Of a stretch of 64,000 nucleotides of DNA, positions 4,997 through 63,823 are shown one piece after another. The notes under the pieces were generated by a model. It worked only from the letters and a program-made list of their open reading frames with translations, was not told the DNA's origin and did no database searches. Both the position numbers and the translations under genes were made by a program. Every line of letters starts with the position of its first letter. The first letter of the stretch is position 1. The DNA comes from a virus. The stretch is taken from IMG/VR virus record IMGVR_UViG_3300008259_004660, positions 96,001-160,000 of that record. One strand, given 5' to 3'.

Positions 4997-5004
4997 TATT
5001 TATA
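4997..5004 (+). promoter_or_regulatory. Putative late-promoter motif TATTTATA
   Basis: 13 nt upstream of the ATG at 5018; recurrent motif. Confidence 0.55.
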
Positions 5005-23774: not shown

Positions 23775-24221
23775 ATGAAAAAGCAGGAACTTGTAGAAAT
23801 TATAAGAACTCTAGTAAAAGAAGAAGTTAATAATGCACTTCCACATCTTCTTATGGAAGTTTTGGCAGAAAAAATGGTGCAAAATTCAAACTCTTTGTTG
23901 GAAACAAAAAAGCCAACAGAGCAGCTTCCAAAAAGAACACCAAATGTTTCTTTTGAAGCAACTCCAAAACAGTCACCAGTTCAAGCGCCAAAAACGTTCA
24001 CAACAAACCCAATTTTGAATCAAGTGCTCAATGAAACTGTTGGAGGGATTCCACAAGAAGAATCTTCTGGTACACCATCCGCAATAGATGCACTTCAAAG
24101 TCTTCCAAAACAAGTATTGGCGGAAAACAAAGAAGTTGCAGCGGTCGCATCTGCAATGACAAGAGACTATTCTCAACTATTGAAAGCAATTGACACGAAA
24201 GCAAAAGCTAAAAGACCATAA
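23775..24221 (+). CDS. Hypothetical virion protein with an N-terminal ELxxIIR..V.EE helix
   Basis: N-terminus MKKQELVEIIRTLVKEEV. Confidence 0.6.
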   Translation: MKKQELVEIIRTLVKEEVNNALPHLLMEVLAEKMVQNSNSLLETKKPTEQLPKRTPNVSFEATPKQSPVQAPKTFTTNPILNQVLNETVGGIPQEESSGTPSAIDALQSLPKQVLAENKEVAAVASAMTRDYSQLLKAIDTKAKAKRP

Positions 24222-38684: not shown

Positions 38685-39167
38685 ATGAAAAGAAGTGAAC
38701 TAAAACAATTGATTAGAGAAACGATTGAAGAAATTTCAGCAGATACAGCCAGACGAGCGGCTGATAAGGCAAAGGAGTTGGGAAGATATCAACAAGCGGG
38801 CAGATTACAACTAACTGCTCAAAAAAAGGATGTGGCGGCGTTTGGTGGAGATGTAAAAATAGAAAAGATTAAAATCGGAGAAACCGGTATACTTTCCAGT
38901 GCAGAAATGCTAAAATTGGGTAAAACTAAAGATGGTAAACCCGGTATTTCTATCCGAGTAAAAGAACCCAACCCAGTAGCACACTATTATAAAGAAAGCG
39001 CCCCCTTCACCTACAAAATATATAATCTGGTAGACAACGATCCACATATAACCACCGAGGATAAAACTAAAGTGAAAGTTGGTCGCCAAGATAGAATGAA
39101 GTTGATAAAAGCATTCAAATCTATGGGCGTTGATATTAATCCCAATAAAATAAACATAATCGATTGA
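38685..39167 (+). CDS. Putative internal head protein with an N-terminal targeting helix
   Basis: N-terminus MKRSELKQLIRETIEEI. Confidence 0.55.
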   Translation: MKRSELKQLIRETIEEISADTARRAADKAKELGRYQQAGRLQLTAQKKDVAAFGGDVKIEKIKIGETGILSSAEMLKLGKTKDGKPGISIRVKEPNPVAHYYKESAPFTYKIYNLVDNDPHITTEDKTKVKVGRQDRMKLIKAFKSMGVDINPNKINIID

Positions 39168-50326: not shown

Positions 50327-52099
50327 ATGAGCAAACCAATCAGACTAACTGTTATAATTCCTTGTTACAACTTTGAAAAGTATGTAACACAAGCTATCGA
50401 TTCTGTGTTGAATCAGAATGTGAACTTTGGTATTGAAGTATTGATTGTGGATGATAATTCTACTGATAATACTTTCAACATCATAAATCAAAAATATGGA
50501 TCAAACAATTTGGTGAAGATACATCAGTCTCCAAAAAATCAAGGAATAACAAAGAATCTCAAGGACATGATGGATAAGGCGCTGGGCCAGTATCTGTATA
50601 CAATGGACGGCGATGATTTCATCATTGATATGAATTATCTTCAACGTGCGGTTGATTTTTTGGATAATAATCCAAAATATTCATTGGTATGTTCTGGCTA
50701 CAAACTTTTATACAACGATGGAACGATGTATCCCACAGAGGACGATCCTGCCGTATGGTCTGCTCCACGTGAAGACATATATCTCAATGATTTGCTCTCG
50801 GTGAATTATATTTCATTTGGCAGAGTATTTCGTAATTACAAGAATATCATAAAGCCTTGGATGCACGATGAACTGCATGAAGATTGGACTATCAATGCGG
50901 AAATATTGAAGAACGGCCCAGCCAGATGTGACAAGAATTATACAGGAATTTACAGAATAACAAAAGCTGGTCGCATAACTTCCATGAGCGAAGGACAGGT
51001 ACACGAGAAGAACAGAAAAACTATTGCCGCCATAAAGAGCAATCTTACACTGAAAACAATATCAATTGTTGATTCATTTGTACACAATGAAAATGTTAAA
51101 GTTAAGCTTGAGAGATGCATTAAATTTTTGAAAGAGGATGGGCATGAAATTTTGCTGGTGTCCAATACTCCTGTGGATAAGCATATTATACAAGATGTAA
51201 AATTTTTCATGTATGATAGCAGAAATCAACTATTCAAGCAGGAATATGAGACAAAAAACACAGTTGATTTTTGGCGTGCATTGAATGGTAATTTGGAAGT
51301 ACATGATATTGTTACCGCAGTGCAAAAGCACGGTCTCAGTGTTCTTATCAATCTATTCAATGCACTACATTATGCAAAACAACAGGGATATACACATTTT
51401 CAAAGATTTGAAGTCGATGATTTGTTTGGTGAAAAATCAAGATCTTGGATCAAGCGAGTTCCAACATATGTACTTGAAGAAGATAAACGAGGATTGATAT
51501 ATTACAATTATGAGAATTCTCCTTCTGATATTTCGTTTCACTATTTCTTCTGTGAGATAGATTATTTTCTAAAGAAGATAAGCCGCATAACTTGTGAGGA
51601 AGATTATGTGAAGTATCTGCATGACTATTATGGTAACAAGGAATTCAAGATTGTAGAAGTATTCATGTATGATCAATTAAAGAAGAATGGCGACAAGGAA
51701 ATATTACAGAAGACTGGAAGAGAAATGAAGATTGATTTTTTCGACACGAAATGGAACACAGAAACTTCCGTAAGTAATTTTGAAACAACATTCTTTGGCT
51801 GCACCACCAAGGTGTATGAAGCTAGAAATTGGAATTCTGTGGCCAGAGAGTTCAATAAGAGGGACGATTATGTGTTGGTAACATATTCATACAATGATAC
51901 ACCTATAAAACGCATAATTGATGTTGAAAAACATGATGGTACCAGAGAAACAATCGAGCAGTCTGTACATGCAGCTGGTAGTTGGGTATGGCATGTTCTG
52001 TCGCCAAATTCAAAAGCAGTTTCAGTTTATCAAGACGGTAATCTATTATACAATCAACAAATAAAAAATCTTGAATCTTGGGCTGGATTCAGAAGCTAA
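50327..52099 (+). CDS. GT2 glycosyltransferase fused to an unknown C-terminal domain
   Basis: TVIIPCYN, VLNQ, IVDDNSTD, MDGDD and HEDW motifs. Confidence 0.85.
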   Translation: MSKPIRLTVIIPCYNFEKYVTQAIDSVLNQNVNFGIEVLIVDDNSTDNTFNIINQKYGSNNLVKIHQSPKNQGITKNLKDMMDKALGQYLYTMDGDDFIIDMNYLQRAVDFLDNNPKYSLVCSGYKLLYNDGTMYPTEDDPAVWSAPREDIYLNDLLSVNYISFGRVFRNYKNIIKPWMHDELHEDWTINAEILKNGPARCDKNYTGIYRITKAGRITSMSEGQVHEKNRKTIAAIKSNLTLKTISIVDSFVHNENVKVKLERCIKFLKEDGHEILLVSNTPVDKHIIQDVKFFMYDSRNQLFKQEYETKNTVDFWRALNGNLEVHDIVTAVQKHGLSVLINLFNALHYAKQQGYTHFQRFEVDDLFGEKSRSWIKRVPTYVLEEDKRGLIYYNYENSPSDISFHYFFCEIDYFLKKISRITCEEDYVKYLHDYYGNKEFKIVEVFMYDQLKKNGDKEILQKTGREMKIDFFDTKWNTETSVSNFETTFFGCTTKVYEARNWNSVAREFNKRDDYVLVTYSYNDTPIKRIIDVEKHDGTRETIEQSVHAAGSWVWHVLSPNSKAVSVYQDGNLLYNQQIKNLESWAGFRS

Positions 52100-52103
52100 C
52101 AAT

Positions 52104-54227
52104 ATGAAAGTAATTAATGTAAATCCGGGCATACTTCCCATTCCACCAAATGGATGGGGCGCAATCGAAAAAATCATATGGGATTATCATCTCCAACTGC
52201 AAAAAATTGGAGTACACAGTGAGATAAAATACCTTAACGAAATCGAATATGACGATAGCACAATTGTACACGTACATGTGGCAAATTTGGCTAACATGTT
52301 TCACGAGAAAGGTGTACCTTATATTTTTACTATCCATGACCATCATGCATATGTTTATGGAAAAGATTCTCCAGTATTCAAAGAAAACTTAAAAGCCATA
52401 GAAAACAGTGTATTTTCATTATCACCATGCAAATATTTGCTTCCATATTTTGGTAGCAAAAAACTAAGATATTTTAGTCATGCTGTAAATACCGATGTTT
52501 TTACATTCAATAATCGTCATAGACACAATCCACTGAAATTGCTTTGTGTAGCTAATAATGGATATGCATATAACCAAAGTGTGGATAGAAAGGGATTTGG
52601 AATTGCAATACAAGCAGCAAAAGAATTAGGTCTTCCAATCACAATTGCTGGGCCAAAAAATAATGACAACTTTTTCAAGACCCTTGACCCAGAACTAAAC
52701 AACTATTCCAAGCTAACAAAACTGTATGATTTGGATGAAAAATGGTTGGTAAATTTGTACAACGAAAACGATCTGTTCCTTCATTTCTCTGAATTGGAAG
52801 CTGGACATCCGAATCTAACATTATTGGAAGCAATGGCGTGTGGTCTTCCGGTTGTTGGAACTTTTGAGGAAAAAGAGTATGATGGCATGGTAGTTTCCGA
52901 AAGAAAATTTGAAAATGCCATAGAATCAATTAAATATGCTGATCAAAATTATGATTTATTGAGAAATCATGCATTAAGCAATGCAAATAAAAATTCATAC
53001 GCTAACAGAGTACATGGTTTGGTCAAACTATACAGTGAATATAGAGAGCGTATTTTCAGCAAGCAACTTGAAGTTGCATACAGTAACACCAAGATAACAT
53101 ATACTGAAGCGAAAAATAGAATCAAAGTAACATTTGATGACGGTGCAAAAGTTGATATATCTGGTGCAGTTCAGAAAAAATACAGAGTAAAATTCATAGA
53201 TGGTCTTACCAACATGGTTGTATATCAAACTGATATATACAACAACATGTGGGCCACTACAAATACCAAGTACTACAACAAGTGGTTGGTAGAAGTGTTT
53301 GATATCACCGACGGCATTGAAGTGTTGGAATATTCCGAGGCAATGGATCTAAAGAATCGCACAGTAAAAGTTGTATTCGACAGTGAAAGTTTGGGAGATA
53401 TTCTTGCGTGGATCGGCGCCGTCGATGAATTTCAAAATAAACATCAATGCAAGATGTATTGTGTGATATTCAACAAGTACTTGCGTGCTTTACTTGAAAA
53501 AAATTATTCAAACATAAAATTTTTGGCTGTTGATGTTTACGCCGAAGAATATTATGCAAAGTATAAGATAGGATGTTTTGATTCAAATGGATATCATCCA
53601 TATATTCCAAAGGATCCGCGCACATTGAATTTGTGTTCAATTGCAAATTGTATTTTAGGTTTAACAGATGTTGAACATAAACCAAAGCTGAATATTGACA
53701 GAAAGAAATACAGTAAAAATAAGAAATATGTATGTATTGCTGTGCAAAGTACATGTCAGGCAAAATACTGGAACAATAAGAATGGTTGGAACAATGTGGT
53801 CAAATATCTTAAATCTCAAGGATATGAAGTATGGTGTATAGACAGATTCAACAGCTTTGGCACCAAAGATAATATGAATTATATACCAGACGGTTGCATT
53901 GATAAGACCGGAGACTTTCCGTTGGAAGAACGCATGGCTCAGTTGGCTGGTGCAAAATTTTTCATTGGACTAAGTTCTGGTCTTTCGTGGGTGGCGTGGG
54001 CGGTAGGTGTGCCAGTTGTAATGATTAGTGGATTTACAAAGGCATATAATGAGTTCTATACGCCGCATCGTATCATAAATGAAAATGTATGCAATGGCTG
54101 TTGGAACGACGTTAATGTGAAGTTTGACCGCTCTGATTGGTTATGGTGTCCATATAACAAGAACTTTGAATGTTCTACTCAAATATCTGTGGATAGAGTG
54201 CTGTCTGAAGTTAAAAAGTTGATATAA
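52104..54227 (+). CDS. GT4-like glycosyltransferase fused to an autotransporter O-heptosyltransferase (TibC/AAH-like) domain
   Basis: N-terminal IPPNGWGAIE and EAGHPNLTLLEAMACG; C-terminal SLGDILAW, QAKYWN...W, FIGLSSGLSW.AWA, ISGFT and CNGCWN...WCP...FEC Cys cluster. ATG at 52104 preferred. Confidence 0.8.
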   Translation: MKVINVNPGILPIPPNGWGAIEKIIWDYHLQLQKIGVHSEIKYLNEIEYDDSTIVHVHVANLANMFHEKGVPYIFTIHDHHAYVYGKDSPVFKENLKAIENSVFSLSPCKYLLPYFGSKKLRYFSHAVNTDVFTFNNRHRHNPLKLLCVANNGYAYNQSVDRKGFGIAIQAAKELGLPITIAGPKNNDNFFKTLDPELNNYSKLTKLYDLDEKWLVNLYNENDLFLHFSELEAGHPNLTLLEAMACGLPVVGTFEEKEYDGMVVSERKFENAIESIKYADQNYDLLRNHALSNANKNSYANRVHGLVKLYSEYRERIFSKQLEVAYSNTKITYTEAKNRIKVTFDDGAKVDISGAVQKKYRVKFIDGLTNMVVYQTDIYNNMWATTNTKYYNKWLVEVFDITDGIEVLEYSEAMDLKNRTVKVVFDSESLGDILAWIGAVDEFQNKHQCKMYCVIFNKYLRALLEKNYSNIKFLAVDVYAEEYYAKYKIGCFDSNGYHPYIPKDPRTLNLCSIANCILGLTDVEHKPKLNIDRKKYSKNKKYVCIAVQSTCQAKYWNNKNGWNNVVKYLKSQGYEVWCIDRFNSFGTKDNMNYIPDGCIDKTGDFPLEERMAQLAGAKFFIGLSSGLSWVAWAVGVPVVMISGFTKAYNEFYTPHRIINENVCNGCWNDVNVKFDRSDWLWCPYNKNFECSTQISVDRVLSEVKKLI

Positions 54228-54242
54228 AAACCCATTGATATA

Positions 54243-54250
54243 TATTTATA
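54243..54250 (+). promoter_or_regulatory. Putative late-promoter motif TATTTATA
   Basis: 4 nt upstream of the ATG at 54255. Confidence 0.55.
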
Positions 54251-54254
54251 TCAT

Positions 54255-57200
54255 ATGGACATTTCTATAACCAATCTCAAAAAGTATGTTTTTGAGCCTA
54301 AGACAGAGTCTTTGCGACTAAAGCGTGCCAATGAGATATTGGGGCAGGGAATGATTGCTACGGAAAAAGTGGATGGCACAAAACTTACTCTTGTTCGTAC
54401 TAATCAGACTGATCCGAATGATTATACCAAGAATTGGGTTGTAGCATATAAGGGAACTGTATTATATCCAAAAGAGTTTGCATACCTTACTCCACAGGGA
54501 AAAAAAGATATATCTCAATCATCTGTTGGTATAGGCCAATATGCTTTGATTTTTGATCATTTGGAAAAAATCAATAACAAGATTGCTAGTATTCCAAAAA
54601 GCACGGAGTTCAGTGTTGAATTTGCGCAGAACAAGGATACTCTCACAAGAACATATGTTCAGAAAGGTGGAATGTTCTTAAGAAGTTATGGTGAGGTGTC
54701 ATATCGTATTGTTGGTGGTGGGTTGAATACTGTTCCGAAACAAGAGATCACAGACTATACCAACGTAAAAAGAATGGCAGATCTTTTGGAAATTAGCGCG
54801 TTTCCTATTTTCTTTCAGGGCAAAATAACAAGAGAAAATGTAGCAAAATATCCATCAATTGCGCCAAAAATGATGAGCGCCGATTGGAATAATCCATTGG
54901 ATGTGTTAACCAAGTTTTCTGATGCTATGCTGTCTATACCATCTACTCTTGGTGGTACAACGGAGGGCGTGGTACTGAAACTTGATAATGGAAGCTTTTA
55001 CAAAATTGTTCAAGCTGACCAATATAGCTCTGATGTAAGAGGTGCTAAGAAAGATTTGTATAAACTTGAGCCAGAAGCGGCCACATCATATTTCCAACAG
55101 ATCAGAGCACTTATTCAAAAAGTATTTGATACCATTGGCACGGATGGAAAGACAGAAGAAGATATCATATCCGACACAAACTTTTACATTGCCAAAAATG
55201 AAAAAAGCTTGGCTAAATTTTTTGATGCATTGCAGAAGATTGCTGGAAACAAAAAGAACCTCGTACAGATCAAGGATGATATTCACGACACTGTTCGTCT
55301 TATGACTTCAAAGCAGGAACTCCTTGGGTCAAAAACAAAATCAATCGCGCTTCTTCCTATTGCTGGCAAACCACTACACATTGGACATTGGAAACTGATT
55401 GAAAAGGCGGCAAATGAAAATGATAATGTTGTGGTCTATACATCAACAACCGACCGTGTGCGTAAAGGAGAATTTCCGATATATGGCGATGATTTTGTGC
55501 AGATATGGAGTGATATGCTCATTCCATCATTGCCAAAGAATGTAAAAGTGAAATTTGTTGATTCTCCATTAAGATCTGTCATGCATGAACTTGGATGGTT
55601 TGAACAAAGACTTACTCAAGACGCTGCAAATGTACCAGTCATTAATCTATATTCAGACAAAGAGGATATTGAAACAAATTTCAAGCAAGAAGATCTGAAC
55701 AAGTATCCAGAATTATTGAAAGCTGGAAAGATCAATAAAGTTGGCGTAGAAAGAACAAGTACGGTCAATGTCAGCGGCACAAAGATGAGAGAATTCTTGC
55801 AGAACAATGACAAGGACTCCTTCATGAAATATTTACCTCCTATATCAACCAAGGATAAAGAACAAATATGGAATATTCTTTCATCTCGCAGACCAAGTGA
55901 TCTTGCTGAAATAAATCCATACGCTGTATTGGCTGAAAAACTGATTAATGAAGTTGCAAATGAAATATTGAATGAAGGCGGATGGAGAAATCCAGAGACA
56001 CAAGAATGGGAAGTTACACCAAAGATGGTGGCAAAGATCGTGGAAGACACTAACAAATTTTTGAATGATTTCAATGCATGGTCTGGATTATCCAAGTTGT
56101 CAACCAAAGGTCCGACAGGAAGTGGAAAATATTACAAGAACGACTTGAATGATCCAAGTATAACTTATGGAGATATTGATATTCAACTTGTATTGCCCGT
56201 TGAAAGCAATGAAAGAAAAAATCAATTAGAAGCCAATAAAATTTTTGGAGACAAGATCCGTGAGTTCATAAAGACCAAAAAACCAAGCTATATTCACGAC
56301 GCAACAAATGATCCAGATTTTGGAATTGGATACTTGATATTCAATGTGGATGGTAAAAAAGTTCAAGTTGATCTTGTACTATCATATACTGTTTCAGCTG
56401 ATTGGACGAGTGTAAGAACAACGCCAGAAAAAGGATTGAAGGGATTTGTCACAGGAATGATGTTAAGTGCATTGAGTGACACATTGAATGTTGTTCTTGG
56501 GTCAAGCACCAATCCGTATATCAACACTGTTGATGGAAAGGTTGTATCATCCTCAATCAAGAAAGATGCTGTGCAAAAATTCCTAAAGCCAAATGAAGTA
56601 TTTGCCGAGATTGTACGATTTTATGGTGAAATGGCGGACATTGAAAACCCAGACTTATCTTTATTGGTTGGTTATATGGGCCTTGATGCCAACGACCCTT
56701 CATTAAAAAAGAAATGCCAAACCGTGGTTGCTTTGGCAAATACACTTGAAAAGAATGGAATATTTGACGCTGGAGTCATAACCTCCAAGGATGGTATAAC
56801 AATCAAAAGCAGAAAACAATTTGTTGATCGCGTAAGAACCACATACATCGATATGATGCAGCGAGCAAAAACAGCCAAAAAACTTGAAAAAGCACAAACA
56901 CCAAGCGCCATGAGAACAATAGAAAAAATAAAAAATCATGCTGATCTGGGAATACAGATGGCAAACGAACTTATCAAAGAACATTATACACTTCTGATGG
57001 AATCTGGTAAATCCATAGCCGCCGTGGACCCAAAAACGCCAAAGATGGTAAATGGTCAGCCAGCACAGGCAACAACCAAATTAAGAATTGTTGATCCGCA
57101 GGGCAAGGATGTGCATTCAGCAGTGTCAAAGGACATCAAGGAACTTGTGTATGTATTGAATGCCAAGGTCGGTTTTTGGAAAAAGAATAATCCGTACATT

Positions 57201-58157
57201 GAAAATGGATTTATATTCAATGGTAGTTCACAATTTCTAATGGATCCAAACAAGTTTGGTGTGTTGAGCAAATACAAAGATTCTTTTGGTGACATAGATG
57301 TTATCATTCCAAAATCAAAATTGGATGCTTTGACATCATTTTTGGACAGCATTGATGACAATAAAGCTGATTGGAATCCGACAACTCAAAACAGATTGTC
57401 TAGTAAGTTTTATTATGTTGGACGCACGAAGAGTTATGCATCCATTCCAGATCAACTTGTAACACTTTGGTATTATGATCCAATGAAGCAAGTTGTTCAA
57501 GTGGACTTTGAAGGTGATGAAATGTTTCTTGATCCGCAAGGATATGAAAAGCCAAGCGAGTGGACAAAATTCAGCAAAGATTCTCCGTGGGAAGATTTGA
57601 CCGTAGGTATCAAGGGATTGGCTGGGGCATTAATGCTTCGCTCATTAGCAAGAGCAACAACAGTATTACCAAATGCAGTTGTGTTGACGCCGGGCGCAGT
57701 CAAGAAAGTTCAGTCTGGTGCAGTCAAGGAACTTACCGATAAGGAAGTTACTAAAGCAGCACAGCACAGTATTCCATCTGCATACACATTAAATACTGGC
57801 GGTGGTGGTACTGGTATACGTAAGGCATACGAATTAGTAAAGACAATGCCATATAATGGGAAGATGGTTGATGCATATAGATTTGTGGAAGCCAAAGAAA
57901 CAAAACCAGAAGACAGAATCACGGATGTTGGCAGAATATTTGAAATATTGTTCAAAAAGAAAGCATCGCCTGAAGAAAGAGCTGAATTTCGCAGCTATCA
58001 GGGACTGTTAAGACTAATGAAGAAATATTTGGACAAGAAAACCATCGACATTGCTATGAATAGATTCACGGAAGTTTTGGCTGGCGAAGGTTTAAATCCA
58101 AAGGAATATGCTTCTGTGCAAAAGGCTACGAAAGATATTCTTGGATTGTCTATATAA
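54255..58157 (+). CDS. Four-domain nucleotidyltransferase protein: ligase-like (KxDG), HIGH cytidylyltransferase-like and two Pol-beta-like NTase domains
   Basis: EKVDG (aa 37-41), EGVVLK, KPLHIGH (H375), GSG...GDID (639-642)...QVD and GSS...GDID (1012-1015)...QVD. Confidence 0.75.
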   Translation: MDISITNLKKYVFEPKTESLRLKRANEILGQGMIATEKVDGTKLTLVRTNQTDPNDYTKNWVVAYKGTVLYPKEFAYLTPQGKKDISQSSVGIGQYALIFDHLEKINNKIASIPKSTEFSVEFAQNKDTLTRTYVQKGGMFLRSYGEVSYRIVGGGLNTVPKQEITDYTNVKRMADLLEISAFPIFFQGKITRENVAKYPSIAPKMMSADWNNPLDVLTKFSDAMLSIPSTLGGTTEGVVLKLDNGSFYKIVQADQYSSDVRGAKKDLYKLEPEAATSYFQQIRALIQKVFDTIGTDGKTEEDIISDTNFYIAKNEKSLAKFFDALQKIAGNKKNLVQIKDDIHDTVRLMTSKQELLGSKTKSIALLPIAGKPLHIGHWKLIEKAANENDNVVVYTSTTDRVRKGEFPIYGDDFVQIWSDMLIPSLPKNVKVKFVDSPLRSVMHELGWFEQRLTQDAANVPVINLYSDKEDIETNFKQEDLNKYPELLKAGKINKVGVERTSTVNVSGTKMREFLQNNDKDSFMKYLPPISTKDKEQIWNILSSRRPSDLAEINPYAVLAEKLINEVANEILNEGGWRNPETQEWEVTPKMVAKIVEDTNKFLNDFNAWSGLSKLSTKGPTGSGKYYKNDLNDPSITYGDIDIQLVLPVESNERKNQLEANKIFGDKIREFIKTKKPSYIHDATNDPDFGIGYLIFNVDGKKVQVDLVLSYTVSADWTSVRTTPEKGLKGFVTGMMLSALSDTLNVVLGSSTNPYINTVDGKVVSSSIKKDAVQKFLKPNEVFAEIVRFYGEMADIENPDLSLLVGYMGLDANDPSLKKKCQTVVALANTLEKNGIFDAGVITSKDGITIKSRKQFVDRVRTTYIDMMQRAKTAKKLEKAQTPSAMRTIEKIKNHADLGIQMANELIKEHYTLLMESGKSIAAVDPKTPKMVNGQPAQATTKLRIVDPQGKDVHSAVSKDIKELVYVLNAKVGFWKKNNPYIENGFIFNGSSQFLMDPNKFGVLSKYKDSFGDIDVIIPKSKLDALTSFLDSIDDNKADWNPTTQNRLSSKFYYVGRTKSYASIPDQLVTLWYYDPMKQVVQVDFEGDEMFLDPQGYEKPSEWTKFSKDSPWEDLTVGIKGLAGALMLRSLARATTVLPNAVVLTPGAVKKVQSGAVKELTDKEVTKAAQHSIPSAYTLNTGGGGTGIRKAYELVKTMPYNGKMVDAYRFVEAKETKPEDRITDVGRIFEILFKKKASPEERAEFRSYQGLLRLMKKYLDKKTIDIAMNRFTEVLAGEGLNPKEYASVQKATKDILGLSI

Positions 58158-58841: not shown

Positions 58842-59196
58842 TGTAATTGATGCATTGGCTCATAGGGTGAAATCAAGATTTTCATCGTCCGATGGGAAAT
58901 GTGAATACATGGCCCAAGAACTTGTAAAGGAACTAAGAAGCAGAGGAATAAGAGCGGAGCATGTGATGGGGATATTCACATTGGATGAACCGGGAGCATG
59001 GAAATATAGATCGGATGAAGATGAAAATTTGGATGAATATCAAGTCAATCACGATTGGGTAAATGTTGAAGGAAAAATATTGGATATATCAGCGGACCAA
59101 TTCAAGAAATATGTTTATGTGAACATACCTGATGTGGTGTATATAAGTTACTCTGATCCATTATACAGATATTACGAGGAACTTGGACATGTCTGA
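58807..59196 (+). CDS. Small transglutaminase/papain-like fold protein (Cys-His-Asp)
   Basis: GKCEYMA...NHDWV...ILDISADQF pattern. Start uncertain. Confidence 0.5.
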   Translation: MEKLAKFLPQADVIDALAHRVKSRFSSSDGKCEYMAQELVKELRSRGIRAEHVMGIFTLDEPGAWKYRSDEDENLDEYQVNHDWVNVEGKILDISADQFKKYVYVNIPDVVYISYSDPLYRYYEELGHV

Positions 59197-60835
59197 GGGT
59201 AAGACTAAAAATCTCAAAGATGTAATCAGAGAAGAATACATCAAGTGCGCCAAAGATCCAATATACTTCATGAAGAAGTATGTGAAAATCCAACATCCTA
59301 CACGCGGCACTTTGCCATTTATCACATACCCATTTCAGGATAAAGCATTGGAAAACTTTGTTCATCATAACCAAAATATTATTCTTAAAAGCCGCCAAAT
59401 GGGAATTACAACATTGGTAGCGGGATATAGCATATGGTTGATGACGTTTCATAATGACAAACAGATACTTTGCTTGAGTATTACACAAGAAACATCCAAG
59501 GCAATTGTAACCAAAGTAAGATTTGCAAACGATAATTTACCAAGTTGGTTGAAAGTACCAGCAGTTGAAGATAACAGACTATCACTGAAACTAAAGAATG
59601 GATCCGAAATTAAAGCAGCAAGTAGTGCTGGTACATCTGGTCGTTCAAGTGCATTGTCATTGCTCGTAGTAGACGAAGCTGCGTTTATTGATAACATAGA
59701 AGAAATTTGGTTATCATCCCAATACACATTATCAACGGGTGGTAAAGCAATTATCCTATCAACTCCGAATGGCGTAGGTAATTGGTTCCATAAGATGTGG
59801 ACAGAATCCGAGGAAGGATTGAACAGTATGAATAGAATCAGTCTTCCTTGGCATCTTCATCCAGAGCGAGATCAAAAATGGAGAGATGAACAAACCAAAC
59901 TCTCTGGAGAAAGAGGAGCCGCCCAAGAATGTGATTGTGAATTCAGCACATCTGGTAACACTGTAATTGAAATTCCAATACTTGAATGGTACAGCAAGAA
60001 TCAAGTAACAGAACCAATTGAAAAACGGGGAATGGATAGAGGCTATTGGATATTTAAATATCCAGAAGCTGGAAAATCATATATGGTGAGCGCCGACGTA
60101 GCCCGTGGTGATGCATCAGATTATAGCGCCGCTCAAATATTAGATATTGAAACAATGGAGCAAGTGGCAGAATATAAAGGAAAATTGCCAACCAAAGAAT
60201 ATGCTCGTGCGCTAATCACAATGGCAACAGAATACAATAATGCACTGCTTGTGATAGAAAACGCAAATGTTGGTTGGGCAGTCATACAGGAAGTATTGGA
60301 CAACAGTTATCCAAATTTGTTTTATAGTTCATCGGATCTTCAATATGTTGATGTCGAAAATCAAATGACCAACAAGATAAATGCGCAAGAAAAGAAGATG
60401 ACTCCGGGGTTCACCACTTCAAACAAGTCTAAGCCTCTTCTAATATCAAAGCTTGAAAGCTATTTCAGAAATAAGGAAGTTATTATTCATAGTAAAAGAT
60501 TGGTTGAAGAATTACAAGTGTTTATATGGAAGAGTGGTGCTGTGTCATCAAAGGCAGAAGCAATGGATGGATATAATGATGACCTTGTTATGTCTTTGGG
60601 AATTGGACTTTGGATAAGAGATGTCGCGCTAAGATTAAGAAAAGACTCAGAAACTATAACAAGAACCATACTTGATAGAATAGGGTCTACTTCAAATGAC
60701 CAAGTAAAAGGCAACATGCAATCCTTGTATAGAAATACAAATCCATTTGGAACGCAGCCAAACCCGTGGCAAATGAAGGTTGGTGGTCATGGCTCAAGTC
60801 AGCAACCAATCGACTTAACATGGTTATTAAAATGA
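59189..60835 (+). CDS. terL: Terminase large subunit (T4 gp17-like)
   Basis: PYPFQ-like TYPFQD, ILKSRQMGIT, LVVDEAAF, LSTPNG, ADVARG..SDYS and NDDLVM motifs. Confidence 0.93.
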   Translation: MSEGKTKNLKDVIREEYIKCAKDPIYFMKKYVKIQHPTRGTLPFITYPFQDKALENFVHHNQNIILKSRQMGITTLVAGYSIWLMTFHNDKQILCLSITQETSKAIVTKVRFANDNLPSWLKVPAVEDNRLSLKLKNGSEIKAASSAGTSGRSSALSLLVVDEAAFIDNIEEIWLSSQYTLSTGGKAIILSTPNGVGNWFHKMWTESEEGLNSMNRISLPWHLHPERDQKWRDEQTKLSGERGAAQECDCEFSTSGNTVIEIPILEWYSKNQVTEPIEKRGMDRGYWIFKYPEAGKSYMVSADVARGDASDYSAAQILDIETMEQVAEYKGKLPTKEYARALITMATEYNNALLVIENANVGWAVIQEVLDNSYPNLFYSSSDLQYVDVENQMTNKINAQEKKMTPGFTTSNKSKPLLISKLESYFRNKEVIIHSKRLVEELQVFIWKSGAVSSKAEAMDGYNDDLVMSLGIGLWIRDVALRLRKDSETITRTILDRIGSTSNDQVKGNMQSLYRNTNPFGTQPNPWQMKVGGHGSSQQPIDLTWLLK

Positions 60836-60899: not shown

Positions 60900-62813
60900 A
60901 TGGCTGATCAAAAAGACTTATTTAGTAGACTGAAAAAGATGTTCTCTACGGACGTTATTGTTCGTAATGTGGGCGGAAAGAAAATCAAAGTTGTAGACAC
61001 AGATGAAATACAATACGCAACAGACAGAAATAGTTTGCGCGACCGTTTTAATCGCTTAAGAAGTTCAACATATAATCTTCATAATCGCGATTTGAGCATG
61101 GCATATCAGTCAAGCCGTCTTGAGTTATTCAGAGATTATGATGTAATGGACATGGATCCTATCATTGCATCTGCATTGGATATTTATAGCGATGAATGCC
61201 TTGTACCAAGTGAGTTTGGTAATGTTCTTACTATTCGATCCAAGAATGAAAATATCAAGCGCATTCTTCATAATTTGTTTTATGACATAATGAATGTTGA
61301 GTTCAACATGTGGAGTTGGACTCGTAACATGTGCAAATATGGAGATTTCTTTTTGCGCATGGAAATATCTCCCGAGTATGGTGTGTATCTTGTTCATCCA
61401 ATCAGTCCATATGAAATCACACGCATAGAAGGTAGTGATCCAAAGAACATCAATTATGTAAAATACCAACATGATGGTGTTGGCGGCGGAATGGAATATG
61501 AAAATTTTGAAATCGCACACTTTAGACTTTTGAGCGACAGCAATTTTCTTCCATATGGAAAATCGATGGTTGAACCAGCACGCCGTGTATGGAAGCAATT
61601 GAGCTTAATGGAAGATGCCATGCTTATTCATCGTATCATGCGTGCACCAGAAAAGAGAATATTCTCAATTGACGTTGGCAATATTCCTCCTGCTGATATT
61701 GACACGGCGATGCAAAAAATCATCAGCCAAGTCAAGAAAGTTCCATACATTGATGAGAAAACAGGAGATTATAATCTAAGATTCAATCTTAACAACATGA
61801 TTGAAGACTTTTATCTGCCTGTTCGTGGCAGTGACAGTGGAACAAAGATCGATACGTTGCCGGGAATGGAATTCACTGGTATTGATGATCTTGAGTATAT
61901 TAGAAACAAAATGATGGCCGCACTCAAGATTCCAAAGGCGTTTCTTGGATATGAAGAAGGATTAAGTGGCAAAGCGACACTTGCGGCGGAAGATGTAAGA
62001 TTTGCTCGTACTATTGGGCGCATTCAGCGCATTCTTATTTCCGAATTAACCAAAATTGCAATTGTTCATTTGTATGTTCAAGGATATCAAGATGCATCTC
62101 TTGTTGACTTTGAATTGGAACTAAGTAATCCAAGCACAATCTTTGAACAAGAAAAATTGGAAATTTGGCAAAATAAAATCAATCTTGCATCGGATATGAA
62201 AGATAGCAATATGTTTAGCAAGACATGGATGTATAACAATATATTCAATATGTCAGATGTTGACATTGAAACATTGCAGAATGAGGTTGTTGGTGATAAA
62301 AAAGAAGAATGGAGACTGCAACAAATTACTGATGAGGGCAGCGATCCTGCGTTTGCAACTGGTGGAGGTGAAGGTGCTACTGGTGGAGGTGGTGCAGCAC
62401 CTGAACTTGGTGGCGGTGAAGGCGGTGGGGCGGAGGCTGGTGGAGAAGCTGGTGGATTGCCTCCGCTTGAAGAAGAACAGAAAGCCGACGAAGCCATTAT
62501 TGACGAAGAAACAAGAAAAGATCGTGAACGTGGAAATCGCGATCAAACAGGAAACAAGGAAAAATATACATCTTCGCACACCAAAAACTTTGGGGAAGAT
62601 CCTCTTGGTAACAAAGAAAACAAAGAAAAATCAAAAACAGAACGCAGAACTCGTCATATATACAGAAGCTCTGGATTGTCTTTAGAAGAAGATTTGAAGA
62701 ATATAAAAAACTCCTTGAAAAGCAAGCATGTTAATAAACAAAGAAAGGTAATTGTAGAAGGAAAATCCATATTAGATGAATCCAATATCATTGAAGAGGA
62801 TAAACCTCTCTAA
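60900..62813 (+). CDS. Portal protein (T4 gp20-like)
   Basis: LMEDAMLIHRIMRAPEKRIFSIDVGN, EDFYLPVRG, TKIDTLPG, LKIPK and EDVRFAR motifs; long Gly/Glu-rich C-terminal tail. Confidence 0.93.
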   Translation: MADQKDLFSRLKKMFSTDVIVRNVGGKKIKVVDTDEIQYATDRNSLRDRFNRLRSSTYNLHNRDLSMAYQSSRLELFRDYDVMDMDPIIASALDIYSDECLVPSEFGNVLTIRSKNENIKRILHNLFYDIMNVEFNMWSWTRNMCKYGDFFLRMEISPEYGVYLVHPISPYEITRIEGSDPKNINYVKYQHDGVGGGMEYENFEIAHFRLLSDSNFLPYGKSMVEPARRVWKQLSLMEDAMLIHRIMRAPEKRIFSIDVGNIPPADIDTAMQKIISQVKKVPYIDEKTGDYNLRFNLNNMIEDFYLPVRGSDSGTKIDTLPGMEFTGIDDLEYIRNKMMAALKIPKAFLGYEEGLSGKATLAAEDVRFARTIGRIQRILISELTKIAIVHLYVQGYQDASLVDFELELSNPSTIFEQEKLEIWQNKINLASDMKDSNMFSKTWMYNNIFNMSDVDIETLQNEVVGDKKEEWRLQQITDEGSDPAFATGGGEGATGGGGAAPELGGGEGGGAEAGGEAGGLPPLEEEQKADEAIIDEETRKDRERGNRDQTGNKEKYTSSHTKNFGEDPLGNKENKEKSKTERRTRHIYRSSGLSLEEDLKNIKNSLKSKHVNKQRKVIVEGKSILDESNIIEEDKPL

Positions 62814-63505: not shown

Positions 63506-63823
63506 ATGACACGCAACGAACTCAAACAAATCATTAGAGAAACAATTGAAGGTGTTCAGGCAGAAGCTGCCAAAGTTTCACCGTCTGGTACAACATATAC
63601 TTTCAATCAACTTAACAAATTGCTAAGAGCAAACAAAATCATTGTATTTATTAAGTCCACGTATGATCAAGGACTCATTCAGATTGATAATGAAGACGGA
63701 TTTTTCATGGACGAAGGTGATGATGGTGATCAAGCAGTACATGCTGCTGGGGGAGGTTACAAGTATGAATTTGGTGCAGACTTTGAAGAAGTATATGTTG
63801 CTCAAAAAGTGAATCTTAAATAA
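63506..63823 (+). CDS. Putative internal head protein with an N-terminal targeting helix
   Basis: N-terminus MTRNELKQIIRETIEGVQAE. Confidence 0.55.
   Translation: MTRNELKQIIRETIEGVQAEAAKVSPSGTTYTFNQLNKLLRANKIIVFIKSTYDQGLIQIDNEDGFFMDEGDDGDQAVHAAGGGYKYEFGADFEEVYVAQKVNLK

Follow-up and report, generated by a model that had tools for sequence, protein, structure and literature searches.

The polyprotein gene and its product

We have analyzed a gene encoding a chain of predicted nucleotidyltransferases (NTases) in a stretch of 64,000 nucleotides (nt) of viral DNA, referred to below as the window, which covers positions 96,001 to 160,000 of IMG/VR record IMGVR_UViG_3300008259_004660; the source record is a viral contig of 184,824 bp, estimated to be 78% complete. 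The polyprotein gene is a single open reading frame (ORF) on the + strand at window 54255..58157, whose product of 1300 amino acids (aa) is composed of four domains (D1 to D4), with linkers behind D2 and D3 (Table 1). An earlier note on this DNA had placed the start of the gene at 54243; that position belongs to the motif TATTTATA upstream, and the ATG is at 54255. The residues quoted in the note are all found at the numbers it gave: EKVDG with K38, EGVVLK, YK, H375 within PLHIGHW, ILNE574↓GG and LLME916↓SG (here and below the arrow marks a junction or putative cut).

Table 1. Features discussed in the text, in window coordinates unless the genome is named.
Feature	Position	Strand	Remarks
Pre-gene motif ATATTTATA	54242..54250	+	ends 4 nt before the ATG; putative late promoter
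D1, aa 1-357	54255..55325	+	RNA-ligase-fold covalent nucleotidyltransferase (aa 1-263) and helical C-domain
D2, aa 358-548	55326..55898	+	HIGH-motif Rossmann nucleotidyltransferase
Linker 1, aa 549-574	55899..55976	+	lower-confidence helix (pLDDT 62-81), ends ILNE574↓GGW
D3, aa 575-904	55977..56966	+	Pol-beta-fold nucleotidyltransferase, family X palm and thumb-like
Linker 2, aa 905-916	56967..57002	+	ELIKE909↓HYTLLME916↓SG, two tandem (L/I)xE sites
D4, aa 917-1300	57003..58154	+	second Pol-beta-fold nucleotidyltransferase
Stop codon of the polyprotein ORF	58155-58157	+	
Large terminase gene, T4-type	59183..60835	+	PHROG 2, E 5e-45
Portal gene	60900..62813	+	PHROG 213, E 4e-63
Small head-module ORF	63506..63823	+	tag-like leader MTRNELKQIIRE↓TIEG; between portal and major capsid genes
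Rnl1-like and DNA ligase genes	genome 12464-12982 and 53136-53729		outside the window

Folds of the four domains

Sequence libraries gave only weak matches to recognized enzyme families (Pfam RNA_ligase with E 5e-3, and HIGH-type families whose scores were close to or under the cut-offs); the polyprotein also matches PHROG 27149 and 19290, both of unknown function. The folds were compared using AlphaFold models built on family alignments, with a mean predicted local distance difference test (pLDDT) score of 90.5 and a predicted template modeling score (pTM) of 0.85 for residues 1-574, and a pLDDT of 91.9 for residues 575-1300.

The model of D1, which the earlier note had rightly assigned to the ligase type, has an RNA-ligase fold: the best matches (VIA-align) are Naegleria Rnl5 (5cot; Z 12.0, 186 residues aligned with a root-mean-square deviation (rmsd) of 3.7), T4 Rnl2 (Z 11.8, 187 residues) and T. 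brucei REL1 (Z 10.7), as against Z ~8 for DNA ligases and capping enzyme, and Foldseek returns Trl1 (E 1.6e-8) and T4 Rnl2 (E 2.7e-8). At the level of sequence the score with PF09414 is 17.3 bits, below the cut-off of 27. The motif I lysine is K38 (codon at nt 54366-54368), motif IV is EGVV at aa 237-240, and the motif V lysine is K250; conservation is at least 90% for E37, K38, D40, G41, E237, G238, V239, V240 and K250, and the EF motif is conserved as well. Separate genes of the phage code for a T4 Rnl1-like RNA ligase (E 7.6e-15) and for a DNA ligase that is ATP-dependent (E 5.4e-25), and D1 is therefore a third ligase-fold enzyme.

D2 carries the HIGH-type motif H375-I-G-H378, as had been proposed, and a motif of ISxTxxR type, VSGTKMR, at aa 506-512; H375, G377, H378, S507, G508, T509 and R512 are invariant. 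Its fold is matched by NadD, NadM, NadR, NMNAT and PPAT with Z 10-11.9 and by cytidylyltransferases with Z 7.3, while among sequence families it matches the cytidyltransferase and NMNAT families of PHROG (E 2e-7 to 8e-5) and scores 12.2 with Pfam CTP_transf_like, below the cut-off of 21. Judged by the model, D2 would be an NMNAT/PPAT-like adenylyltransferase, a fold match that does not fix its substrate class.

D3 begins directly with a palm, without the 8-kDa and fingers (helix-hairpin-helix) domains, and its palm and thumb align to Pol beta residues 142-335. In VIA-align the match to Pol beta has Z 10.1-10.2 over 179-187 residues (rmsd 3.6-4.1), followed within family X by Pol mu (Z 9.9), Pol lambda (Z 9.0) and African swine fever virus (ASFV) Pol X (Z 8.8); the next-best fold class, consisting of OAS, TUTase and cGAS-like/CD-NTase enzymes, scores Z 5.6-7.6. 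The suggestion that this domain is an enzyme of CCA-adding, AMPylating or CD-NTase type was not borne out by the difference between these scores and the ~10 of family X polymerases. The key residues of D3 are G622-S623 and the carboxylates D640, D642 and D706; in domain numbering, G48, S49, D66, D68 and D132 are invariant among 41 distant relatives. The corresponding residues of D4 are G990-S991, D1013, D1015 and D1084, and G74, D97, D99, Q166 and D168 (domain numbering) are invariant among 45 relatives. From the invariance of the G-S motif and of the three carboxylates, D3 and D4 are predicted to be active enzymes.

The mutual similarity of D3 and D4, to which the earlier note had pointed, can be recognized by comparing their profiles (hhalign probability 95.5%, E 1.5e-8, 263 columns), although BLASTP between the two yields nothing significant (E 0.11). 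D4 matches PHROG 19290 with E 2.5e-32, and its nearest ESM Atlas clusters are viral entries labeled 'nucleotidyltransferase family protein'. A Pfam scan of the polyprotein and of 86 D3/D4 relatives at E up to 0.1-1 found no family for D3 or D4, including RlaP (PF10127), NTP_transf_2 and PolX. Nor did PDB sequences yield a usable match or a polymerase when searched with the whole protein or the profiles of D3 and D4. The lists of structural matches of the D3-D4 model are dominated by D3; within D4 only ANT(2'') is found, with Z 5.5. In the PDB search the D4 profile gave one weak match, to baculovirus AC142, a 49-kDa nucleocapsid-associated protein (E 0.008, two short stretches that include the region of the G-S motif), which may reflect either a related fold or chance.

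Linkers and module borders

We have examined the conservation of the L-x-E linkers in 37 full-length homologs from metagenomes, 53-94% identical to the polyprotein. Linker 1 contains four [LI]xE sites (E552, E561, E566 and E574), and the last of these, E574, is followed by GGWR in 38/38 full-length sequences. The two sites of linker 2, E909 and E916, are conserved in 33/38 and 36/38, respectively, and it is only at aa 910-917 (336-343 of the model) that the pLDDT of the D3-D4 model drops below 50. Altogether, 6 of the 12 [LI]xE sites of the polyprotein fall in the two linkers. The linkers named in the earlier note are thus conserved at the glutamates that it singled out.

The order and number of the modules vary among relatives. 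Some have no D3 (D1-D2-D4, ~950-1030 aa) and others no D4 (D1-D2-D3, ~910 aa), one has the order D1-D2-D4-D3, and in a 97-kb contig the gene is split, with a D1-D2-D3 gene for 927 aa and, 1 nt behind its end, a D4 gene for 406 aa. Because D3 or D4 can be missing, reordered or encoded as the next gene, the junctions are real module borders; these lie at residues 572-576 and 901-916, in agreement with the earlier note. The D4 ORF of the split gene begins 19 aa before SG and has a leader of its own, MKNYTQLLWESVKSLIKE↓SGQ. Together with the stand-alone D3 and D4 proteins described below, which start either with M-GG or with a leader followed by GG, this ORF provides the separate homologs starting near the junctions that the earlier note had suggested looking for. 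In all 16 D1-D2-D4 forms inspected, [LI]xE↓SG is found at the junction between D2 and D4; the D1-D2-D3 forms retain a site of IIKE type followed by a tail of 14 aa. More distant members of the D1-D2 family bear N-terminal leaders ahead of D1.

At 2-4 kb upstream of the split genes (L028:1569-3303), that phage has a gene resembling IS605 OrfB/TnpB, along with a small ORF that matches ART-PolyVal weakly.

Leaders of stand-alone relatives

A phmmer search of 1.8 billion cluster representatives (50% identity) at E <= 0.001 gave 524 matches, which split into a D3 family (~340 aa) and a D4 family (~400 aa). The sequence ahead of the conserved glycines was classified in relatives of both families. 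For D3, 37 relatives have a leader ending in [ILVMF]xE before GG[WFY], 31 carry the junction internally in fusions, 13 start with M-GG and 2 fall elsewhere; for D4 the leader ending in [ILVMF]xE stands before GG in 22, the junction is internal in 3, 22 start with M-GG and 4 are of other kinds. The xE↓GG junction is thus present in 93/99 D3/D4 relatives having upstream sequence, with I, L or V at P3 in 91/93 (the background of the motif is 1.9% per position); ahead of D3 alone, a junction of (I/L/V)xE↓GG type is found in 68/70. The leaders themselves are 5-34 aa long and varied in sequence, and end at the same motif, as in MKQTEFISE↓GGW, MRAKEFIIE↓GGW, MEFKLKTYNEFIFE↓GGW and MKSFKQFLLE↓GGN; those of D3 have a modal length of 9 aa, and 26/35 begin with M[KR]. 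Since removal of the initiator methionine in one group and a cut after the glutamate in the other would yield the same GG N-terminus, the glutamate and the P3 residue appear to be part of a removable propeptide, outside the fold.

In T4 the capsid-targeting sequence is MKTYQEFIAE (PMC8442874), of which residues 4 and 7 serve in targeting and residues 8 and 10 direct processing by gp21 (PMC9026906); several sites per propeptide are usual, and Alt, for example, is cut at ITE-6 and LTE-619 (PMC5694885). To judge from their sequences, the leaders of D3 and D4 resemble this element.

Close relatives of leader-bearing, stand-alone D3 are encoded at 230 IMG/VR loci. Many stand-alone D3 genes lie on contigs of 44-216 kb that are rated only 11-45% complete, and therefore many such phages probably have genomes of several hundred kb. 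An S77 protease was seen in 2/16 IMG/VR records with a leader-bearing D3, all 16 being fragments of 11-45% completeness.

Homologs in purified virions

Purified virions of the T4-like Campylobacter phage vB_CcoM-IBB_35 have been analyzed by electrospray ionization tandem mass spectrometry (ESI-MS/MS) by Carvalho et al. (PMC3322345), and the proteins listed in Table S2 of that work include the products of gene 1-56 (44,446 Da, 17% coverage), gene 2-25 (2.9% coverage) and gene 2-24 (23.7% coverage). By its coordinates, gene 1-56 corresponds to AEF56792.1, which is a homolog of D4 (BLASTP E 3e-36, 30% identity, 302 aa), while 2-25 and 2-24 are two pieces of a D1-D2 homolog, whose counterpart in phage CP220, gp026, is a single protein of 503 aa. 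The D4 ortholog of CP220, gp100, starts with MKLSELMFILE↓GGN. Another CP220 protein, gp027, which is annotated 'virion structural protein' and adjoins the D1-D2 homolog, was considered as the D4 homolog and ruled out, the real one being gp100, elsewhere in the genome.

The head module and the motif upstream of the gene

The phage has a T4-type head module. A gene for a gp21-type protease lies just beyond the window (genome 160844-161470; PHROG 207, E 1.5e-53), with a Peptidase_S77 domain (PF03420) at genome 160931-161350 that scores above the cut-off (E 2.6e-26), and scaffold-like ORFs and a gp23-like capsid protein are also found just beyond the window. The small ORFs between the portal and capsid genes begin with MTRNELKQIIRE, MKDTKQIIRE, MNLTDIAKKIINE, MNNKITNPLLKQLISE and MNTLKLRPLIE, so that the leaders of these head-core ORFs end in IIRE, IINE, LISE or PLIE; the capsid protein carries LLTE10 and LIDE61. 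Genome-wide, a motif of (L/I)xE type occurs within the first 24 residues of 22/212 ORFs, 8 of which belong to the head module. By sequence, the polyprotein linkers (EKLINE, EILNE, NELIKE and TLLME) appear to be of the same type as these head-core leaders.

Leaders of this kind are also seen away from the head module. Two ORFs of 148 and 160 aa, at window 23775-24221 and 38685-39167, begin with MKKQELVEIIRTLVKE and MKRSELKQLIRE, respectively, and are candidates for further capsid cargo. A lone minus-strand lysozyme-like gene (genome 166796-167470 (-); L020:10796-11470) begins with MSIIKLKDLLKEQKLIE and has two (L/I)xE sites, which is consistent with a head-loaded muramidase.

The motif preceding the polyprotein gene, (A)TATTTATA, is present in 22 copies on the + strand of the whole genome record, versus 6 copies of its reverse complement; the genes of the record are almost all on one strand. 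In 19/22 cases it sits 1-29 nt before the start of an ORF, and the ORFs behind it include, besides the polyprotein gene, the portal gene (motif at window 60863) and other structural genes. The 'late motif' of the earlier note is therefore a real recurring element, whose role as a late promoter we infer. The location upstream of the packaging genes was also given correctly in that note, the distances being ~1 kb to the large terminase gene and 2.7 kb to the portal gene.

Within the window, copies of the motif are at 4997, 17431, 21012, 23752, 34626, 37812, 43448, 49502, 54243, 60863 and 62841, with 11 more elsewhere in the genome. Its orientation is that of the reverse complement of T4's TATAAATA. 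Eight copies are only 4-5 nt before an ATG; these may mark leaderless late transcripts or constitute a combined promoter and initiation signal.

Interpretation

The interpretation that we consider probable, with considerable room for doubt, is that the gene encodes a late cargo polyprotein that is loaded into the head, cut by the S77 protease and injected with the DNA for the repair of nucleic-acid ends. The polyprotein would be made late, from the motif common to the portal and other structural genes, and its linkers would be internalized versions of the T4-type targeting and propeptide elements, that is, amphipathic stretches ending in (I/L/V)-x-E, which could bind the polyprotein to the scaffolding core of the prohead. 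The gp21-family S77 protease would then cut after E574, and after E909 and/or E916, setting free three enzymes in the head: D1-D2, which we take as a fusion of an Rnl2/Rnl5-like ligase with an NMNAT/PPAT-like adenylyltransferase; D3, starting with GGW; and D4, starting with SG. On leaving the head with the DNA, these enzymes would act at the very start of infection, the PolX-like ones extending damaged 3' ends or filling them in before the ligase seals them. We infer the loading, cutting and ejection of the polyprotein, as well as all of its substrates. A late, head-loaded polyprotein cut at (L/I)-x-E sites had been proposed in the earlier note; the comparative evidence from junctions and leaders and the homologs in IBB_35 virions speak for it, and the absence of an N-terminal tag speaks against it.

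End repair, by extension and subsequent sealing, is the task that we favor as most likely in our analysis, because of the fold matches of D1 and D3, the recurring linkage of ligases with NTases, and the precedent of RNA ligase and RlaP. An RNA ligase with the Pol-beta NTase RlaP is an established pairing in RNA repair, in which RlaP extends damaged RNA 3' ends by 1-2 nt ahead of ligation and is required for restoring heavily damaged tRNA (PMC12776372, PMC7824862). As an example of the recurring linkage, the D4 and D1 genes of Vibrio phage Va1 are neighbors, with a gene annotated 'multifunctional tRNA nucleotidyl transferase' at a distance of 3 kb. In the metagenome proteins P0121, P0082, P0135 and P0246, the same xxE↓GGW junction joins D3 to DUF6267, which stands behind an N-terminal leader of its own. 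DUF6267 displays the motifs KWDG, FKGDLLYF, GGEGYV and (I/V)K(Y/F/L)V in the order found in ligases, and a comparison of its profile with that of D1-D2 was not significant (probability 0.6%); judged by its motifs it is probably an undescribed NTase of ligase/capping type.

Several observations weigh against this interpretation. The main weakness of the packaging model is that an N-terminal targeting propeptide is absent, as the conserved MDISI start belongs to the ligase fold of D1; loading would therefore depend on the internal tag-like linkers, and the N-terminus is, to our knowledge, the only place from which the T4 targeting sequence has proved to act. With 12 occurrences of [LI]xE versus 11.2 expected, the motif is not enriched in the whole protein, and at junction 1 the P3 residue is L or I in only 22/38 close homologs, being mostly F, V or M in the rest; since the homologs are related, the conservation counts do not represent independent events. 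The IBB_35 homologs are only ~30% identical, one of them having been detected at just 2.9% coverage. As to function, a Z of ~10 for one domain is evidence of a common fold and not of a common substrate, the second lysine of motif V is missing from D1 (KIV instead of KxK), and the repair scheme assigns no part to D2. Two further ligases, one Rnl1-like for RNA and one for DNA, are encoded separately by the phage, and no polynucleotide kinase/phosphatase (AAA_33-type) or RtcB was found in the 78%-complete genome record.

Among the alternatives that retain packaging and cutting, the polyprotein could serve in counter-defence, with D2 rebuilding NAD+ or another adenylylated cofactor once NADase defences have been triggered, and D3 and D4 nucleotidylylating host proteins or making or capping nucleotide signals. 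We consider this unlikely, while giving it some weight: the best folds for D2 are NMN/NaMN adenylyltransferases (Z 10-11.9), with NMNAT also recognized among PHROG families (E 8e-5), fusions of D4 with HIGH-type NTases occur in other orders and in the absence of D1 (P0201, P0206, P0128), the OAS, cGAS and CD-NTase folds match D3 as well, and the Pol-beta NTases of polyvalent phage proteins have been predicted to be protein modifiers (PMC5512222). Over palm and thumb, however, family X is clearly superior to CD-NTase and OAS as a match for D3, and the repeated fusion or adjacency to ligase-type domains points to polynucleotide ends. The restoration of NAD+, which the earlier note had listed as a possible function, retains the NMNAT-like fold of D2 in its favor and lacks the partner gene, as no NampT/NadV was found in the 78%-complete record. 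We would give somewhat less credence to the idea that the target of the packaged enzymes is the phage's own DNA, whose gaps or ends would be filled or patched by the PolX-like domains, possibly with ribonucleotides, the ligase sealing nicks or restriction damage on entry. Inside the head the enzymes would sit beside the DNA, D1 is closest to nick-sealing ligases (the Rnl2/Rnl5 type preferring a 3'-OH ribonucleotide at the nick), and the top folds for D3 (Pol beta, mu, lambda and ASFV Pol X) are polymerases that act in gap filling and end joining, a fold match that cannot tell RNA from DNA substrates. In ASFV, Pol X and a ligase form a pair for repair, and ribonucleotide patches are known from bacterial LigD. 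Such a role is made less plausible by the separate ATP-dependent DNA ligase of the phage, by the absence from D3 and D4 of the DNA-binding 8-kDa and fingers domains found in cellular enzymes of family X, and by the absence of a Ku-like or nuclease partner from the polyprotein.

Packaging itself would be dispensed with if the polyprotein were a late multi-domain enzyme of the cytoplasm, in which the Glu-rich helical linkers act as spacers and (I/L/V)xE-GG is kept for folding. Amphipathic Glu-rich helices are indeed common linkers, and the missing N-terminal tag and the lack of overall LxE enrichment noted above would be expected; against this, the 35 leaderless relatives that start with M-GG place the upstream glutamate and hydrophobic residue outside of the fold, the leaders vary in length and sequence and share a T4-tag-like end motif, the phage's own core proteins are headed by the same type of leader, and homologs were detected in purified IBB_35 virions. 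On this evidence we see only a small chance for an unpackaged enzyme. The two glycosyltransferase genes directly upstream (50327-54227) bring to mind, finally, a glycosylation cluster in which D2 would be a sugar-phosphate nucleotidyltransferase making NDP-sugars, as HIGH-type NTases do in some phage clusters (PMC7824862), and PHROG 'cytidyltransferase' families match D2. The fold of D2 is closer to NMNAT/PPAT (Z 10-11.9) than to cytidylyltransferases (Z 7.3), D2 in this family is always fused to D1 and travels with D3/D4 in phages that have no glycosyltransferase neighborhood, and the polyprotein gene has its own upstream motif, all of which makes this explanation highly improbable.

A generalization of the end-repair interpretation, which we offer tentatively and consider slightly more apt to fail than to hold, is that D3 and D4 represent sister families of mini-PolX-like enzymes, routinely loaded into the capsids of T4-like and huge phages by means of T4-type leaders, often chained to ligases in polyproteins that a protease can cut, and injected as a repair kit ahead of gene expression.

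Comparison with known systems

The closest known system is the capsid-targeted, gp21-trimmed cargo of T4, represented by the internal proteins (IPs) and Alt, and the closest concept is that of the polyvalent proteins (PMC5512222). With IPI-III and Alt the polyprotein shares a T4-type head module with an S77 protease, short amphipathic tags ending in (L/I)-x-E, tandem sites in the propeptides, a late-gene location and, as in Alt, enzymatic cargo; the C-terminal tail that follows the cut site in the D1-D2-D3 forms can also be compared with that behind LTE-619 of Alt. It differs from them in that its tag-like elements are internal and separate several enzymes, with none at the N-terminus, and in that its cargo consists of ligase- and polymerase-type NTases, where T4 has an ADP-ribosyltransferase and restriction inhibitors; in sequence it is not homologous to the IPs or Alt. 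The polyvalent proteins described by Iyer et al. (2017; PMC5512222) are similarly multi-enzyme chains in a late or packaging context, predicted to enter with the DNA, and a Pol-beta NTase is among their listed modules. In that class no association with RNA ligase has been reported (PMC5512222), and release by the proteins' own peptidases was proposed, whereas here it would be due to the head maturation protease acting at T4-type sites; Pfam and PHROG scans of the polyprotein gave no match to MuF, ART, Ard or an MPTase/peptidase of its own.

Like the pairing of RNA ligase with RlaP (PF10127), the polyprotein places a ligase beside an NTase of the Pol-beta superfamily, but D3 and D4 have no match to PF10127, and the enzymes, whose activity is predicted, are fused and joined by capsid-tag-like linkers. 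D3 shares with ASFV Pol X and family X a minimal palm and thumb, the G-S motif and the three carboxylates (with ASFV Pol X, Z 8.8 over 163 residues at 18% identity), and differs in having no sequence-level membership in the family and an extra C-terminal helical region (aa ~820-904). Finally, D1 resembles T4 Rnl2 and the Rnl5 of Naegleria and Deinococcus in its fold (Z ~12), KxDG, EGxV and motif V lysine, and in the helical domain that follows as in Rnl2; unlike these it scores below the Pfam cut-off, misses the second motif V lysine and is fused to a HIGH-type NTase.

The T4 capsid-targeting sequence and head protease are textbook knowledge, and the natural cargo known for them, the IPs and Alt, is small. 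What is new relative to T4 cargo and polyvalent proteins are the internal tag-like release linkers, the ligase- and polymerase-type cargo, and two NTase families without a Pfam model. The polyprotein suggests that the T4 head route is widely used for delivering whole enzyme sets. If our interpretation is correct, phages would inject a capacity for repair, or for some other nucleotidyl transfer, ahead of gene expression, (I/L/V)xE↓GG would be a simple rule for predicting the head cargo of uncultured T4-like phages, and Campylobacter phage virion proteins of unknown function would gain a testable identity.

Other observations on the genome

The region had no megablast match among isolated phages; by the large terminase, Microcystis phage Mel-JY01 (53%) and Flavobacterium phage immuto (50%) come closest among isolates. 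While ARAGORN found no tRNA or tmRNA genes within the window, its predictions elsewhere in the record, at genome 754-8996 and 78822-83113, comprise a tmRNA gene, whose tag is AKRNLAKVSFLSVRKNADVEMLAAA, and nine tRNA genes, three for Leu.

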